A stretch of DNA of 40,394 bases from NCBI GenBank assembly GCA_026413685.1, contig JAOAKK010000003.1, forward strand, positions 1 to 40,394, read 5' to 3'. How positions within the stretch are numbered: the stretch's first letter is position 1; each line of letters opens with the position of its first letter. The notes below the pieces were generated by a model. It was not told where the DNA came from. It saw only the letters and a program-made list of their open reading frames with translations, and did no database searches. The DNA comes from Candidatus Micrarchaeota archaeon. Lineage in GTDB: Archaea > Micrarchaeota > Micrarchaeia > CAILAH01. This document shows, piece by piece, positions 257 through 12,116 of the stretch. The translations under genes and the position numbers were made by a program.

Positions 257-1501
257 TTAATCCTTGATTATCTCCCCTTTAAGGTATGCAACGCCCGCAG
301 AAACGATCCTGCACATTACAGTTTCACCTATACGGCCATCAGCCGCAACCTGCTTGTAATACTCATTCCTGCCCACCGTGCTCTTAACCTTCTCGAGCAG
401 TGTGACACCACACGTCCTGCCTACCCATAACGAATTTCTTTGCAGTGAGATTGAGTCGCACAACTTGCTCATTATAATGCTCCTCTTCTTTGCTGCGTTC
501 TTGTCCCACAACTGCATCCTTGCAGCTTCAGTGCCTGGCCGTACGCTGAATTTTGATACGTTTGTTGTATCTGCCTGCACGCGCTTTACAGCCTCAACAC
601 TTAACTCAAAATCCTCCTCGTTTTCACCAGGAAACCCGACAATGATATCATTCATTATGTTTGCGAGCCTGTCCTTTCTTATCTCTTTTATTATGCCAAA
701 GTACTCATCAACAGTGTTCTCCCTTCCCATCAGCTTAAGTATCCTGTCAGAGCCGCTCTGCAACGGCACATGGAAAAACTTGTAAAAGCACTCATTTTCC
801 ATTATAATATCGATAATCTCCATCTGCTCTTTTAGGTGTTTTGGGTTTATCATCCCTATCCGGATTTTCAGGCCCAGGTCGCCAATATCGGCAATCTGGC
901 TTAGCAGCCCTTTGAGTGATGCGCCCCTTTCAAGGCCGTATGCACCCATATCCTGTGATGTGAGGCGAAGCTCTTTTACACCAGCCTCATTTGCAGCCTT
1001 AATCCTTCTTATAACTTCACCGAGCCGCATGCTTCTCAGCTTTGGCCTTGCCAGCTTTGCAAAGCAGTAAGTACACGCGCTTGTGCACCCTTCTGACACG
1101 GCAATGCCCGCGATTGGCGGTGTGAAAGTGTATTCAAGCCCGCCCTTATCACAGGCATTGAAAAATTCCCCACAGCCTCCCCGGAGCGCATCTTCAACAG
1201 CGCTGCATATGTATTTGGTGCTATACGTGCCAATCAAAGTAGCATGTGGCGCGAACCTCCTGGCCAGCTGCCCATCAGCAGCTGCAATGCATCCACCAAC
1301 AACAACAGGCTTTTTAATGCCCTTGAGCCGCTCTATAATCCTTTTTTCGGTGGCATCCTTCACACCGCACGTGTTTATTATAATGACATCTGCATCATCC
1401 TCACTGCTTTCAACAAGCCCTTTTTTTATGAGCAGCTCTTTCATGAGTGCGGAGTCGTGCTGGTTAAGCGTGCACCCGTATGTCTCAATATAAAATTTCA
1501 T
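257..1501 (-). CDS. radical SAM tRNA methylthiotransferase, MiaB/MtaB family (probably archaeal e-MtaB, ms2t6A37)
   Basis: UPF0004 N-terminus YIETYGCTLN..NTC..GGC, radical SAM motif CTSACTYC, HVPLQSGS, IIVGFPGE, C-terminal TRAM-like domain. ATG at 1501 or GTG at 1504. Confidence 0.92.
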   Translation of the reverse strand: MKFYIETYGCTLNQHDSALMKELLIKKGLVESSEDDADVIIINTCGVKDATEKRIIERLKGIKKPVVVGGCIAAADGQLARRFAPHATLIGTYSTKYICSAVEDALRGGCGEFFNACDKGGLEYTFTPPIAGIAVSEGCTSACTYCFAKLARPKLRSMRLGEVIRRIKAANEAGVKELRLTSQDMGAYGLERGASLKGLLSQIADIGDLGLKIRIGMINPKHLKEQMEIIDIIMENECFYKFFHVPLQSGSDRILKLMGRENTVDEYFGIIKEIRKDRLANIMNDIIVGFPGENEEDFELSVEAVKRVQADTTNVSKFSVRPGTEAARMQLWDKNAAKKRSIIMSKLCDSISLQRNSLWVGRTCGVTLLEKVKSTVGRNEYYKQVAADGRIGETVMCRIVSAGVAYLKGEIIKD

Positions 1502-6973: not shown

Positions 6974-9055
6974 GTGGATATTATGATGCGCAAGCTTGCC
7001 ACATCATTGGTTCTTTTTGTGCTGGTTGTGCACGTTATAGCCGCACAATCAGGGAACTTTAATCCTACAATAGTATCATCAATCACAGTAGAATTGTCAC
7101 GCGGCGGGAAAATCACTTCAACAACAGGTGAGCTATCAAGCCTGGAAGTGAGCCTGGCCATACCGCAGCGCACGGATTACCAGCAGGTGAGCATACTGCT
7201 TCCACCAGGCGCGCAGGTGGCAAGGGAAAACGGCAACGATATTGCCCTGCTTACGCACGGGCAAGCTTTCAAGAGTTATGCATACTCGGTTTCTGCAAAC
7301 GTGACATCAAGGAGCAGGGGCGTATACGCACTCCCTAGCAAATACACGAAGGCTCACATTGCGCAGGAGTACCTCTCTGGGACTGAGCACATCATAATCA
7401 CGCCAGAAATAACAAGGCAAGCGCGCGCAGTCACAGCAGGCTACAAGGAGGATATTGATAAGGTAGCGGCGCTTGCAATATGGGTTAATAATTATGTAAG
7501 GTATGATCCCTCTGACTTGGGAAAGAACAGGGACTCTGCTGAAGTAATGAAAAGCCCGCACGGTGTATGTGTTGAGTTTACAAACCTGTTCGTTGCGCTT
7601 GCACGCTCGCTTGGGTATCCTGCACGCACAGTGCTCGGCTATGTCTATTCACCCGAGTATGGCTGGCAGCTGCATTCCTGGGCGGAGGTATATATTGGTG
7701 AATGGGTTGGTGTTGACCCAACGTGGCTTGAGGCAGGGTATATAGATGCAACGCATATCCCCATGTATTTCAGCAGCGATACGAGCACAGAGCTTGTTGA
7801 GCGTGCAAGTGCGGTTTCATCAAGTGAAGACAGTGAGATGGTGTGGGAGGGCAGAGGTGCGCTTGGAAGCGGCACTGAGGATATAAAAATACTCAATTAT
7901 ACTTTTTCAGTGCCGGAGTATCGCATAAGGCATGTGCCAGAGACACTTACAGCTGGTGATGAAGGCGCCATAATCATAGAGGTTGACAGCCCGTCATACC
8001 AGCTTTTCAGTGCGCGTGTTGCCCCGTGCGAAAGCGATACTGAGATTGTCAGGTTTGACCATGGCCCAACCACTGTATTGCTGCACCCAGGCAAGAATTA
8101 CGTGATGCTCCCATTCAGGGTTTCAACAATGCTGAATAAAGGCTACAGTTATTATTGCCCTGTATGGGTTTCGCATAATTTTGGCTCGGACAAGATACAG
8201 TTAGTGGTTGGTGCAATTCCCAAGCCGGCAAAGAAATTCAGTGCCATGCTCTCAAATTACTATCCGAGGAAAGCGGAGGTTAAGATAGCATCTTTGCATG
8301 GCGAAAATATTACGATTGTCAGCGAATTCGGCAAGGAAAGCGTGGCAATTTCGCCACGCTCAGCCAGGGGCGCAACGATTGATTTTAGCGATGGGTTTTC
8401 AGAAGTGCTGCTTGTGCACGATAGCACACACGCACAAGTTATCCGTCTTCCCTATTATGCACAGCCATATTCAAACTCAGTCTACAAAATCAAGGACTTA
8501 TCGCTTACAACATCGATTCCCTCTGACAGGGTGGGCAGGCTTTTGGTGGCTTTTGACACGGTTGGCAACATAACATATGAAGTCCAGGTTTATGCAGATG
8601 GCAAGCCCGTGGGCATTGACAAATCAAGTGCGCCATCATACATTCTTAATTATACGATATTTCCCGAGCCTGGCAGCCACACAATATCATTTGTGGTTGA
8701 TTTTGGCACTGAAAAATACAAATACGATGCCTCTTATGAGGTGTTTGACCCAAAAATTTCAGTGGATAAAGCTAGTATTGATGGGCGCAATTATACCTTC
8801 AGCGTTTCAGGCCCATACCAGGCATACGCAATTTATGTGGATGGGAAAGAAGTGAGCGGGGTGGAAGGCATTATTCTTACAAGTGGTGAGCATACCCTGG
8901 CAGTTGTGTGGATTGATAAGGCTGGTATTGAGAGGGTACATGAAGAAAAGTTTTATGCAGGCATAGGGGATGCAGGCATTTGCACGGCTGCTGGGCTGGT
9001 TTTTACCCTATCGCTTATATTAATTTACATAAAAAGTAAGAAACAGGTGGGTTAA
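6974..9055 (+). CDS. secreted, C-terminally anchored transglutaminase-like (cysteine protease fold) protein
   Basis: Signal peptide; triad GVCVEF, HSWAEVY, WVGVDPT; beta-rich C-terminal domains; terminal TM helix with basic tail. Start is probably ATG 6983 or 6986. Confidence 0.87.
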   Translation: MDIMMRKLATSLVLFVLVVHVIAAQSGNFNPTIVSSITVELSRGGKITSTTGELSSLEVSLAIPQRTDYQQVSILLPPGAQVARENGNDIALLTHGQAFKSYAYSVSANVTSRSRGVYALPSKYTKAHIAQEYLSGTEHIIITPEITRQARAVTAGYKEDIDKVAALAIWVNNYVRYDPSDLGKNRDSAEVMKSPHGVCVEFTNLFVALARSLGYPARTVLGYVYSPEYGWQLHSWAEVYIGEWVGVDPTWLEAGYIDATHIPMYFSSDTSTELVERASAVSSSEDSEMVWEGRGALGSGTEDIKILNYTFSVPEYRIRHVPETLTAGDEGAIIIEVDSPSYQLFSARVAPCESDTEIVRFDHGPTTVLLHPGKNYVMLPFRVSTMLNKGYSYYCPVWVSHNFGSDKIQLVVGAIPKPAKKFSAMLSNYYPRKAEVKIASLHGENITIVSEFGKESVAISPRSARGATIDFSDGFSEVLLVHDSTHAQVIRLPYYAQPYSNSVYKIKDLSLTTSIPSDRVGRLLVAFDTVGNITYEVQVYADGKPVGIDKSSAPSYILNYTIFPEPGSHTISFVVDFGTEKYKYDASYEVFDPKISVDKASIDGRNYTFSVSGPYQAYAIYVDGKEVSGVEGIILTSGEHTLAVVWIDKAGIERVHEEKFYAGIGDAGICTAAGLVFTLSLILIYIKSKKQVG

Positions 9056-10515
9056 TGCCTGACGAGCCAAAGGTTGGAATAGTAACAAAGGATGTTGCAG
9101 GTGCAACGCACGCAATTTTGTGCTTCAGCGGCAAAGAAGGCCCAGAGCCTGTGAATGAAGGATATAAGGGCCACGTGAAAAAGCTCAGGGAGGTTAAGTT
9201 TCTTGCCAAAGCTGGTGAGGTTGCGCTTGTTGATGGCATAATATTTGTTGGGCTTGGTGAAAAGGGCAAGTTTAAGCCACGGCACGCAAGAAAAATCCCG
9301 GGTGCGGCCATAGGGCTTGCGAAAGCTCTGCGCACGCGCTCGCTCTTAATAGACTCCCGCGGGCTCGATGTGCTGCCAGTGAAAAACCTGGTTTATGCAG
9401 CCTTCGTTTCTGTGCACAAATATGAGGAATTCAAGACAAAAGAGGAAAGCAAGGGCAAAGGTGCTGATGAAGTGTTCCCTGAAGAAGTGCTCATTTTTGT
9501 TAGTGACGGCCATGTTGCAGTTGCAAACGAGGCAAAGATAGTTGCAGAATCAATCAACTTTGCGCGTGACATTGCCAACAAGCCAGCAAACGTTGCCACG
9601 CCACAGCTTATGGCAGCCGAGGCTAAGAAGCTTGCATCGCGTGCAGGGCTTGGGTATAAGCTCATAACAAAGAAAGATATGCAAAGGATGGGAATGAATG
9701 CATTCCTTGCGGTTGCAAGCGGCAGCGGGAGGGAGCCTACACTTTCAATTCTTGAATACCGGTCACCTGGTGCAAAGAAGACCTTGGTTGTTGCTGGGAA
9801 AGGGCTGACTTTTGATAGTGGTGGTATTTCACTAAAGCCAAGCAAGGGAATGGAGGATATGAAGTTTGACAAGAGCGGTGCGTGTGCAGTACTTGGCATA
9901 ATGAAGGCTGTTTCTGAGATGCGGCCAAAGATTAACGTTATCGGGATGGTGCCTTGCACTGAAAACATGCCGAGCGGCACGGCAGCAAAGCCTGGGGATA
10001 TTGTGCGCGCATACAATGGCAAGACAATAGAGATACTGAACACTGATGCTGAGGGCAGGCTTGTGCTTGCGGATGTGCTCGCGTATGCTGAGAGGAAATA
10101 CAAGCCGGATTACATGATTGATATTGCAACGCTCACAGGTGCATGCGTGGTTGCGCTTGGGTCATATGCGATGGGGATGTTTTCGAATGATGACGAGTTT
10201 GCAGAGATGCTCAAGAAAGCAAGCAGTGAGGGATTTGATGAGGTATGGCACATGCCGCTGTGGGAGGAGTACTCAGAGATGAACAAGGGCAAGTTTGCTG
10301 ATATTGCAAATGTTACAAACACAGGAGAGGCAGGTGCAGTTACAGCAGCGGCATTTTTATCGAGCTTTGTCTCAAGCGCAAAGTGGGTGCATCTTGACAT
10401 TGCAGGGACAGCATACAGGAACAAGCCAATCCCGCCTGTTGATGTTGGGTGCACAGGCTCGGGTGTTTCTGTTGTGCTAGAAGTGATAAAGCTTATTGAG
10501 CGTGCAAAACACTGA
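9055..10515 (+). CDS. pepA: leucyl aminopeptidase (M17)
   Basis: GKGLTFDSGGISLKP, MKFDKSG, NTDAEGRLVLAD, IATLTGA, WVHLDIAG. Confidence 0.95.
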   Translation: MPDEPKVGIVTKDVAGATHAILCFSGKEGPEPVNEGYKGHVKKLREVKFLAKAGEVALVDGIIFVGLGEKGKFKPRHARKIPGAAIGLAKALRTRSLLIDSRGLDVLPVKNLVYAAFVSVHKYEEFKTKEESKGKGADEVFPEEVLIFVSDGHVAVANEAKIVAESINFARDIANKPANVATPQLMAAEAKKLASRAGLGYKLITKKDMQRMGMNAFLAVASGSGREPTLSILEYRSPGAKKTLVVAGKGLTFDSGGISLKPSKGMEDMKFDKSGACAVLGIMKAVSEMRPKINVIGMVPCTENMPSGTAAKPGDIVRAYNGKTIEILNTDAEGRLVLADVLAYAERKYKPDYMIDIATLTGACVVALGSYAMGMFSNDDEFAEMLKKASSEGFDEVWHMPLWEEYSEMNKGKFADIANVTNTGEAGAVTAAAFLSSFVSSAKWVHLDIAGTAYRNKPIPPVDVGCTGSGVSVVLEVIKLIERAKH

Positions 10516-10543: not shown

Positions 10544-10874
10544 TGAGCGGCTGGGTGTAGGCCGCCTTTTGTCAGGCGCACTTCCAGAAAGGATATGCTC
10601 GCCGTGGCAGCATTTGTCTAAGCGCCCAAAAGGGCTTGCACGCTCACTGCCCTGCACAGGGGGCCGTTTCATCCTGCGTCCCACCGACGTCGTTGCCTCA
10701 TCCCTTAAAGTGGGGCAGGTGCCGTTTCTGTTCCCCCATCCGCAATATTAATGCAGTCAGGGCTCTGCGTGGGCGGACCTTCCTCAGTTGCTTTCTTTCG
10801 GTGCAGCTCTTTGGAGCCTTTCCAAAGAAATTGCATTAAAAGAAAGCCACCGTGAGCTGCCCACCAGCCGCTCA
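10544..10874 (-). ncRNA. rnpB: archaeal RNase P RNA, reduced type-M-like structure
   Basis: Minus strand: P1 UGAGCGGCUGG (10874-10864) with CCAGCCGCUCA (10554-10544); P2 GGCAGC/GCUGCC; CR-I GAGGAAGGUCCGCC (10785-10772) pairing with CR-V ACAAAAGGCGGCCUAC (10572-10557); CR-II AACAGAAAC; CR-III GAUGAAAC; CR-IV GCUUAGACAAAUGCUGCC; TATA-like GCTTAAA 29 nt upstream. Confidence 0.93.
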
Positions 10875-10892: not shown

Positions 10893-10908
10893 TAAATTTA
10901 AGCTTTTT
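10893..10908. promoter_or_regulatory. overlapping divergent TATA/BRE elements for rnpB (-) and the MFS gene (+)
   Basis: Plus-strand ATTTAAG at 10896 is 30 nt before ATG 10926; minus-strand AAAAAGCTTAAAT has GCTTAAA 29 nt before the P1 5' end at 10874. Confidence 0.6.
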
Positions 10909-10925: not shown

Positions 10926-12116
10926 ATGCGGCAATCCCAGAAAGAGAAGGAAGGCGTAAGAAACATAACACTGCTTGGCATTGTAAGCTTCCTTAATGAT
11001 TTTAGCAGTGAGATGATAATGCCAATCCTGCCATTTTTCCTAGCTTCTCTTGGTGGCGATTCCGTCCTGATAGGGCTTGTTGGCGGGATACGCGATTCAA
11101 TAACAAGCTTCCTGAAAATACTCTTTGGGTATCTCTCTGACAAGATAGGAAAAAGAAAAGTGTTCGTTTATGCAGGGTATATCACATCTGCAGTATTCAA
11201 GTTTCTTCTTGCGTTTGCACCCACGCAGCTGTTTGCGCTTGCAGCAGCATCACTTGAGCGTGTTGGGAAAGGGATGCGTGATGCACCGCGTGATGCAATG
11301 ATAAGCCAATTCTTGCCGCATAAGAGCGGCGCCGGGTTTGGGCTTCACCAGGCACTTGATACGGTTGGGGCAATTTTTGGCTCGGTAGCAGTTCTTCTCC
11401 TGCTTATGTATGTGTTTAGCCCGCTTACCCCTGATGGGTACATGCAGATAATCGCTTTTGCCGGCGTTATAGCACTGCTTTCAGTTGTGCCGCTCATTTT
11501 TGTGAAAGAGCCGAAGTTTAAGCCAACCGGCAAGTATTATAACTTCATATCTGCCATACGGGCACTTCCAAGGGATATGCTAATCTTCATCGGGATAACA
11601 GCGGTATTCACGATTGCAAACTTCAGCTATATGTTTTTCATAATGAAAGCTGGATTAACAGAAGGGATACTCATACCAATAATGCTGTATATAGCCTACA
11701 ACATATTCCAGGCAGCATTTGCGTATCCAATAGGGAAGTATGCCGACAGGATAGGGAAGCGCACTGTCCTCATACTGTCATACATTGTGTTCTCGGCAAT
11801 CCTTTTTGGGTTTGCATTGCTCACTTCCGTTGAAGCGATGCTTTTGCTATTTGTGCTTTACGGGATAGCAACGGCTGCGTTTATCGGTGTGCAAAAGGCA
11901 TATGCAGCAGACCTGTCACCGCCTAGCCTTAGAGGGACTGCAATGGGGACTTTCCAGATGGCAGTTGGGATTGCAGCATTGCCTGCCAGCGTTATTGCAG
12001 GATACCTCTGGAAATTTATATCACCAGATGCAACGTTTATTTTCGGCGGTACGGTTGCACTGCTTGCAGCCGTGCTTATGGTTGTGTTCAGGCCAGCAAA
12101 ATTATCCAGTGGTTAA
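10926..12116 (+). CDS. MFS transporter
   Basis: About 12 hydrophobic segments; motif A twice (GYLSDKIGKRK, GKYADRIGKR); RVGKGMRDAPRDA. Confidence 0.92.
   Translation: MRQSQKEKEGVRNITLLGIVSFLNDFSSEMIMPILPFFLASLGGDSVLIGLVGGIRDSITSFLKILFGYLSDKIGKRKVFVYAGYITSAVFKFLLAFAPTQLFALAAASLERVGKGMRDAPRDAMISQFLPHKSGAGFGLHQALDTVGAIFGSVAVLLLLMYVFSPLTPDGYMQIIAFAGVIALLSVVPLIFVKEPKFKPTGKYYNFISAIRALPRDMLIFIGITAVFTIANFSYMFFIMKAGLTEGILIPIMLYIAYNIFQAAFAYPIGKYADRIGKRTVLILSYIVFSAILFGFALLTSVEAMLLLFVLYGIATAAFIGVQKAYAADLSPPSLRGTAMGTFQMAVGIAALPASVIAGYLWKFISPDATFIFGGTVALLAAVLMVVFRPAKLSSG

Follow-up and report, generated by a model that had tools for sequence, protein, structure and literature searches.

Type M-like losses in the RNase P RNA of a Micrarchaeia archaeon and its relatives

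RNase P RNAs of Archaea were still sorted into types A, M, and T in 2026 (PMC13462272). Reviews define type M RNAs by what they have lost: the P15 loop that recognizes the substrate is missing, as are P8, P16, and the P6 pseudoknot (PMC4919922; PMC1874661). Their P10/P11 is described as elongated and uninterrupted (PMC1874661), and their activity in trans is reported to require proteins (PMC2475606, PMC5499556). A variant of type M that keeps P8 occurs in Archaeoglobus profundus, A. veneficus, and Ferroglobus placidus (PMC3579882). In a model of the type T enzyme the 3′ end of the tRNA pairs with L15 (PMC13462272). In human H1 RNA, which is called similar to type M, P19 lies between P2 and P4 (PMC13022451).

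We analyzed a 40,394-nt stretch of DNA (the window) in which an RNase P RNA with a reduced, type M-like core had been read from the sequence at 10544-10874. Scanning the whole window with cmscan revealed a match to the archaeal RNase P family (RF00373) that spans model positions 1-288 of 288, with a score of 93.8 bits against a gathering score of 84 and an E value of 5.2e-25 (Table 1). The ends of this match agree within 2 nt with those proposed in the initial annotation. It is the sole Rfam match above the gathering score in the window and the sole RF00373 match in the assembly (609,022 bases in 49 contigs, 64% complete), and a standard Rfam scan detects the RNA above threshold. The gene lies alone in a 410-nt intergenic gap, with both neighbors on the opposite strand, and ARAGORN predicted no tRNA gene within the window. 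A look through sequencing runs listed none of RNA that contains the sequence.

The window also encodes the archaeal markers aRF1, RFC, ABCE1, and MetRS. Five records, under the titles Candidatus Micrarchaeia, Micrarchaeum, Micrarchaeota or 'archaeon', share 63-87% identity with the ABCE1 of the window; its identity is 45% to a Candidatus Iainarchaeum record and ~40% to Poseidoniales. Judged from this marker protein, the host is a Micrarchaeia archaeon and thus a member of DPANN, as the initial annotation had supposed, and it falls outside the known type M lineages. We rejected contamination as a source of the window, since ABCE1 is encoded on the same contig as the RNase P RNA; in five other members of the family, the two genes also lie within ~7 kb of each other on one contig. 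The related genomes used for comparison are 0.6-1.5 Mb in size.

Table 1. Features of the RNase P RNA locus. RNA numbering starts at the 5′ end of the RNA, window position 10872.
Feature	Window positions	Strand	RNA positions	Pairs with (window)	Remarks
M17 aminopeptidase gene	9055-10515	+			One flank of the RNase P RNA gap
MFS transporter gene	10926-12116	+			Other flank of the RNase P RNA gap
TATA-like TTAAATTTA, putative	10893-10901	-			Lies after an A-rich stretch, 21-29 nt ahead of the RNA 5′ end; read from the sequence
RNase P RNA gene	10546-10872	-			327 nt; RF00373 full-model match
P1, 5′ strand	10864-10872	-	1-9/319-327	10546-10554	9/9 Watson-Crick
P2, 5′ strand	10856-10861	-	12-17/262-267	10606-10611	6/6 paired
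Expanded P3	10785-10852	-	21-88		68 nt; stack of four helical segments (4, 10, 4, and 7 bp)
CR-I and P4 5′ strand	10772-10785	-		10559-10566	AGG-U-CCGCC
P4			93-95, 97-101/307-314		3+5 bp, U96 bulged
P5, 5′ strand	10767-10771	-	102-106/230-234	10639-10643	CACGC/GCGUG
P7, 5′ strand	10758-10763	-	110-115/219-224	10649-10654	GCCCUG/CAGGGC
Lone P7-P10 hairpin, assigned P9	10740-10756	-	117-133		Loop with UAA core
P10/11, 5′ strand	10733-10737	-	136-140/210-214	10659-10663	GGGGG/CCCCC; 5 bp, uninterrupted
CR-II (AACAGAAACG)	10723-10732	-			From cmscan alignment and helix location
P12	10674-10718	-	155-199		45 nt; helix base and second segment located
CR-III (GAUGAAACGG)	10664-10673	-			From cmscan alignment and helix location
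P15	10624-10635	-	238-241/246-249		GCCC-UUUU-GGGC; 4 bp, UUUU loop
J15/2 (GCUUAGACAAAU)	10612-10623	-			From cmscan alignment and helix location
Extra hairpin, P2 3′ strand to J2/4	10573-10605	-	about 268-300		Position of eukaryal P19
CR-V / J2/4 and P4 3′ strand	10559-10572	-			CR-V follows the extra hairpin

The core described in the initial annotation was recovered in full. P1, P2, P4, P5, P7, P10/11, P12, P15, and one further hairpin are all present, each fully paired, with every listed pair Watson-Crick or G-U, and the five conserved regions (CR-I to CR-V) align to the RF00373 model in cmscan. In P12, a GCAA loop closes off a tandem G.A signature of the form GAUGA...CGA (about 10690-10702). 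By eye, the GAUGA motif is present in those 15 of the 18 rows of our class alignment (A1, below) that have a long P12, and the signature probably forms a K-turn that would bind L7Ae.

We collected homologs and examined covariation, as the initial annotation had suggested, in two alignments, both made with MAFFT and evaluated by pair counts without structure refinement. A1 contains 18 of the 40 class RNAs, all ≤275 nt and drawn from 10 families; the window RNA is not among them, and one more short RNA, from G003, was omitted because its match is incomplete. The structure scored in A1 comprised P1, P2, P3, P4 (as a pseudoknot), P5, P9, P10/11, P12, and P15. In this alignment 93.0% of cells pair, and two-sided changes occur in 41 of 52 pairs. 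None of 500 shuffles reached the observed values, although the aligned sequences are kin and this result is therefore not a probability; when partners were slid by 1-3 columns, pairing fell to 34-47%. A2 contains the window RNA and eight relatives from its family. Here 90.6% of cells pair, two-sided changes occur in 33 of 70 pairs, and slid partners pair at 37-48%, a comparison biased in favor of the proposed structure, since the window RNA had itself been the template for it. The pair counts of both alignments back the helices, and the compensatory changes in A2 argue for selection on the structure within the family.

In A1, compensatory changes occur in 10 of the 11 pairs of helix 1 (P1) and in four of five P5 pairs, and 99.1% of P2 cells are paired. 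P4 pairing reaches 100% in the nine family members and 99.3% in the 18 class members. In A2, P7 is 90.7% paired, with five of six pairs compensatory, and P10/11 is 82.9% paired.

Between P7 and P10, the initial annotation had found only one hairpin, and this holds. The interval between P7 and P10/11 is 20 nt (RNA 116-135), 17 of which form the hairpin, so a second helix cannot fit. cmscan aligns the lone hairpin to P9 and deletes the P8 positions of the model, and in A2 the hairpin is 100% paired, with all five pairs compensatory. Among relatives with two or more hairpins in this interval, the one next to P10 bears the YUUAAGG loop typical of the class, and for this reason we named the retained hairpin P9. 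The hairpin that precedes it in such relatives usually has a GNRA loop (by eye; G014, G039, G019, G034, G024). Across Micrarchaeia, the YUUAAGG sequence of the P9 loop is conserved (A1 columns 103-108), and in RNAs of the Iainarchaeum phylum the loop is GNRA.

P15 is equally bare, as first described. CAAG of CR-IV and GCUUAG of J15/2 are separated by 11 nt; in the type A RNA of Poseidoniales G043, which matches RF00373 at 234.5 bits, they lie 41 nt apart. In addition, cmscan replaces the 36 model positions distal to P15 with 3 nt, leaving no space for a P16/P17 arm. Within the family (A2), pairing of the short hairpin itself is 100%, and C-G pairs are exchanged for A-U. Because P5 and P7 are separated by only 3 nt, P6 has no partner. 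By spacing and by the cmscan alignment, P8, L15, P16, P17, and P6 are all absent from the window RNA.

We next give the distribution of these losses in a survey set of 41 genomes (the window genome and 40 relatives). RF00373 matches at E ≤ 0.01, 191-365 nt long, were present in 40 of the 41 genomes; scores were above the gathering score in 25 of the 41 and below it in 16. Since so many fall below this threshold, DPANN RNase P RNAs will often be left unannotated, and a lineage-specific model is needed. From all counts we excluded a second, type A-like RNase P RNA of G032 (L114, contig C8, 1,449 nt), which is probably contamination of the bin. A bare P15 element of 8-15 nt is present in all 40 Micrarchaeia RNAs (37 lengths were measured by script; those of G017, G030, and G015 were read by eye as 9, 11, and 14 nt). 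We set P8 status by the distance between CR-I and CR-II and by eye, as RNAfold misfolded the RNAs of G038, G039, and G009. A distance of ≤58 nt, corresponding to one hairpin, was found in 31 of the 40 RNAs, counting that of G028, which at 58 nt is ambiguous and was entered as one hairpin. Eight RNAs (G009, G014, G024, G039, G038, G019, G029, G034) have 69-108 nt and two or more hairpins, and one (G020) has 36 nt and no hairpin. The M-like architecture is the class-wide norm in Micrarchaeia and no quirk of the window genome.

A quick ABCE1 tree (one protein from 25 of the 41 genomes, with an Iainarchaeum outgroup; families f4, f5, and f9 are missed) placed two-hairpin forms at the base of the class and the two-hairpin G038 as sister to a one-hairpin form. 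Since well-supported branches of this tree force them, at least two changes of P8 status occurred inside the class. The short P15 extends to the Iainarchaeum phylum, in which 29 of 31 genomes have an RF00373 match and 28 of 30 RNAs have a P15 element of 7-18 nt; the parser mis-set the other two.

Of the known types, type M is the closest. Like type M RNAs, the window RNA is without P8, L15, P16, P17, and P6 and has a plain P15 hairpin, an uninterrupted P10/11, and a K-turn-like motif in P12, and its genome holds the five protein genes, two of them below cut-off. The equation of this set of losses with those of type M, made in the initial annotation, agrees with the definitions in the reviews cited above (PMC4919922; PMC1874661). 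The RNA differs from type M in its DPANN host, in a P10/11 that is 5 bp long (about 5-8 bp in relatives, by eye) rather than elongated, and in having a 68-nt P3, a hairpin between P2 and J2/4, and a P9 loop with a UAA core. The distinction by host sets Methanococcales and Archaeoglobaceae, as described in papers, against Micrarchaeia, as placed by ABCE1. The P8-keeping variant of Archaeoglobaceae has the same losses in the C-domain; it matches the eight of 40 Micrarchaeia RNAs with two or more hairpins, but not the window RNA, which has one. Among the matches listed in our search of the open-access literature, we found no description of an M-like RNase P RNA architecture in DPANN.

The other types share less with the window RNA. 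The type A comparator (G043) has in common with it the core helices, CR-I to CR-V, and the Rfam family, but possesses P8 and the 41-nt P15-P17 module, neither of which is in the window RNA; of the features that characterize type A (P8, L15/P16/P17/P6, and an interrupted P10/P11), the window RNA has none. Type T (Thermoproteaceae) is also a reduced archaeal form, and its shortened Rpp30 recalls the short Rpp30-like open reading frames (ORFs) of the class. However, type T is without most of the S-domain and Rpp21, whereas the window RNA retains CR-II, CR-III, P9, P10/11, and a 45-nt P12 but no L15, and its genome has an Rpp21 fragment. Human H1 RNA, from eukaryal nuclear RNase P, also has a long P3, and its likeness to the window RNA in the extra hairpin is one of position only; eukaryal RNase P RNAs, unlike the window RNA, keep P8.

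We searched for the proteins that the initial annotation had listed for follow-up (Pop5, Rpp30, Rpp21, Rpp29, L7Ae, and HARP) and found three of them over cut-off in the window genome, two below cut-off, and HARP not at all. Those over cut-off are Rpp29 (88 bits), Pop5 (28.5 bits; cut-off 23), and L7Ae (97.6 bits), the search for L7Ae having covered the window genome. Rpp21, a fragment at a contig end, scored 28.2 bits against a Pfam cut-off of 29.3, and a 166-aa Rpp30-like ORF immediately upstream of Pop5 scored 30.4 bits against a cut-off of 35. Across the survey set, matches were present in 40 of 41 genomes for Rpp29, 39 for Rpp21, 37 for Pop5, and, at E ≤ 0.01, 34 for Rpp30, with 12 of the last over cut-off. 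The Rpp30 matches adjacent to Pop5 cover just the C-terminal half of the Pfam model. Rpp30-like ORFs of the class are short (140-248 aa) and usually lie beside Pop5 (G000 C45:7453-7719 and 7817-8089; many relatives). HARP over cut-off was found neither in the window genome nor in the two congeners (81% and 93% complete); of the 41 surveyed genomes, one (G040) has HARP over cut-off.

None of the 16 tRNAs predicted by ARAGORN in the window genome is followed by an encoded CCA, which fits the absence of L15. With default settings, ARAGORN reports one intron-less tRNA gene in this genome (G000, 609 kb), and 16 predictions are obtained with introns allowed. The other 15 depend on introns that range from 35 to more than 1,000 nt in length, and false predictions are probably among them.

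A reading that accommodates these data, and that we hold with considerable confidence, is that the locus encodes the catalytic RNA of a ribonucleoprotein (RNP) RNase P in Micrarchaeia, with M-like losses and with substrate positioning and folding that would depend on protein. The RNA retains the universal core, which comprises P1-P5, P7, P10/11, P12, the P4 pseudoknot and its bulged U, and CR-I to CR-V, and has lost the elements with which bacterial and type A enzymes grip the substrate, namely P8 on the T-loop side and L15/P16/P17/P6 on the 3′-CCA side. Since these elements are gone, protein dependence is to be expected: positioning and folding would rest on Pop5-Rpp30, Rpp21-Rpp29, and L7Ae, as in the type M enzymes of Methanococcales. 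We infer that the window RNA functions in pre-tRNA cleavage, depends on proteins, and works like type M. The gene itself is unremarkable within its known family; what is new is that an M-like architecture with extras is standard in Micrarchaeia and a second DPANN phylum. The bare P15 is common to that second phylum, so that convergence with Methanococcales is no more than plausible.

Alternatively, the RNA could be a true type M by descent, either passed on horizontally by Methanococcales or Archaeoglobaceae or sharing ancestry with them, with no independent reduction. The set of losses is identical, and both states of P8 occur in Micrarchaeia just as a P8-keeping variant occurs in Archaeoglobaceae (PMC3579882). 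In Micrarchaeia, however, the P8-bearing RNAs (eight of 40) are basal to or nested among P8-less ones, with at least two changes of state by the ABCE1 tree (25 of 41 genomes), and this distribution, together with a YUUAAGG P9 loop and a P19-position hairpin that are features of the lineage and a P10/11 that is short, makes descent from type M improbable in our view.

The initial annotation left out two insertions, the 68-nt P3 and the hairpin at the position of P19. Relative to the Rfam model, cmscan places an insertion of 58 nt in P3 and one of 29 nt between the 3′ strand of P2 and J2/4. In the family alignment, pairing amounts to 87.5% for the base of P3 and its second segment; the distal part comes from a single sequence. 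The P19-position hairpin varies in sequence and is present in eight of nine family members (by eye), with G-C to A-U and C-G to U-A exchanges among the three closest relatives. It is absent from most families, and outside the window family we saw it in three RNAs (by eye); many Iainarchaeum-phylum RNAs have a hairpin at the same position. We considered a K-turn in this hairpin and rejected it, as the tandem G.A is missing. In the window family (10785-10852; relatives L117, L020, L120), P3 reaches ~100 nt, and CUUUCUUU / AAAGAAAG repeats are abundant in it.

As the two insertions have no assigned role, they could in principle hide equivalents of P8 or P16/P17, making the RNA a type A form in disguise. 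We regard this as very unlikely: they sit elsewhere in the chain than P8 or P15-P17, the hairpin between P2 and J2/4 is missing in most families and has a variable sequence with no conserved GGU, and P3 varies in length between about 10 and about 100 nt in a single family.

Least likely of all is that the gene is a decaying relic and that another enzyme, such as HARP, processes tRNA 5′ ends, for although two other families of the class have HARP with an RNA that is weak or not found, and although the missing part of the 64%-complete window genome might hold another RNase P activity, HARP was not found over cut-off here or in the congeners, the universal nucleotides and every core helix are intact, compensatory changes within the family indicate selection on structure, and Rpp29, Pop5, and L7Ae are encoded along with weaker Rpp30 and Rpp21 matches.

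According to Daniels et al. (2019), HARP is absent from all DPANN and, in Archaea, never occurs without the RNP proteins (PMC6380272); the main text of a 2025 genome-mining paper does not mention DPANN (PMC12153264). In a second sample, 41 genomes from the order of G020, HARP was over cut-off in 14: seven of eight genomes in each of two families, and none of the 25 elsewhere. Seven of these genomes (G079, G091, G100, G103, G106, G096, G105), 88-93% complete, have HARP at 124-178 bits. In these seven, we found no RF00373 match at E ≤ 1 with laxer filters (the best score was 12.3 bits), did not find Rpp29 or Pop5, and found no Rpp21 over cut-off. Three more of the 14 have RNA matches of just 29-33 bits. 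By eye, the RNAs of G097 (L208) and G085 (L216), both from one HARP-bearing family, are missing the P15 hairpin, such that CR-IV joins J15/2 directly, and those of G040, G090, and G084, one genus in the other HARP-bearing family, are altered at otherwise universal positions of CR-II, CR-III, and CR-V. HARP may have replaced the RNP RNase P in these archaea.

Returning to the reading of the window RNA as the catalytic subunit of a protein-dependent RNase P, we put forward more tentatively, at somewhat less than even chances, that it belongs to an undescribed lineage of RNase P RNAs found in Micrarchaeia and at least one more DPANN phylum. Such a lineage would be marked by an M-like C-domain, often by a helix at the P19 position, and by stepwise erosion, with repeated loss of P8, a 191-nt RNA that has neither P8 nor P9, two RNAs of one family without P15, and HARP replacing the enzyme in two families. 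That replacement, if true, would be the first archaeal loss of an RNA-based RNase P. Type M has so far been tied to Methanococcales and Archaeoglobaceae, and the same losses are normal in a DPANN class and a second phylum; if the reading is correct, the M architecture would be a recurrent end-point of the shift from RNA to protein in substrate binding rather than the mark of a single lineage. The class also provides a natural deletion series with which to ask what parts of the RNA can be spared as long as all five proteins remain.

The 191-nt RNA, from G020 (L017 1501-1691), matches RF00373 at 90.1 bits. Its P7 is continuous with P10/11 in a single 13-bp helix, and hairpins between P7 and P10 are missing altogether; P12 amounts to a hairpin of 15 nt, and the P15 is bare. 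The G020 genome is 96% complete and encodes Rpp29, Rpp21, and Pop5 over cut-off, together with a weaker match to Rpp30.
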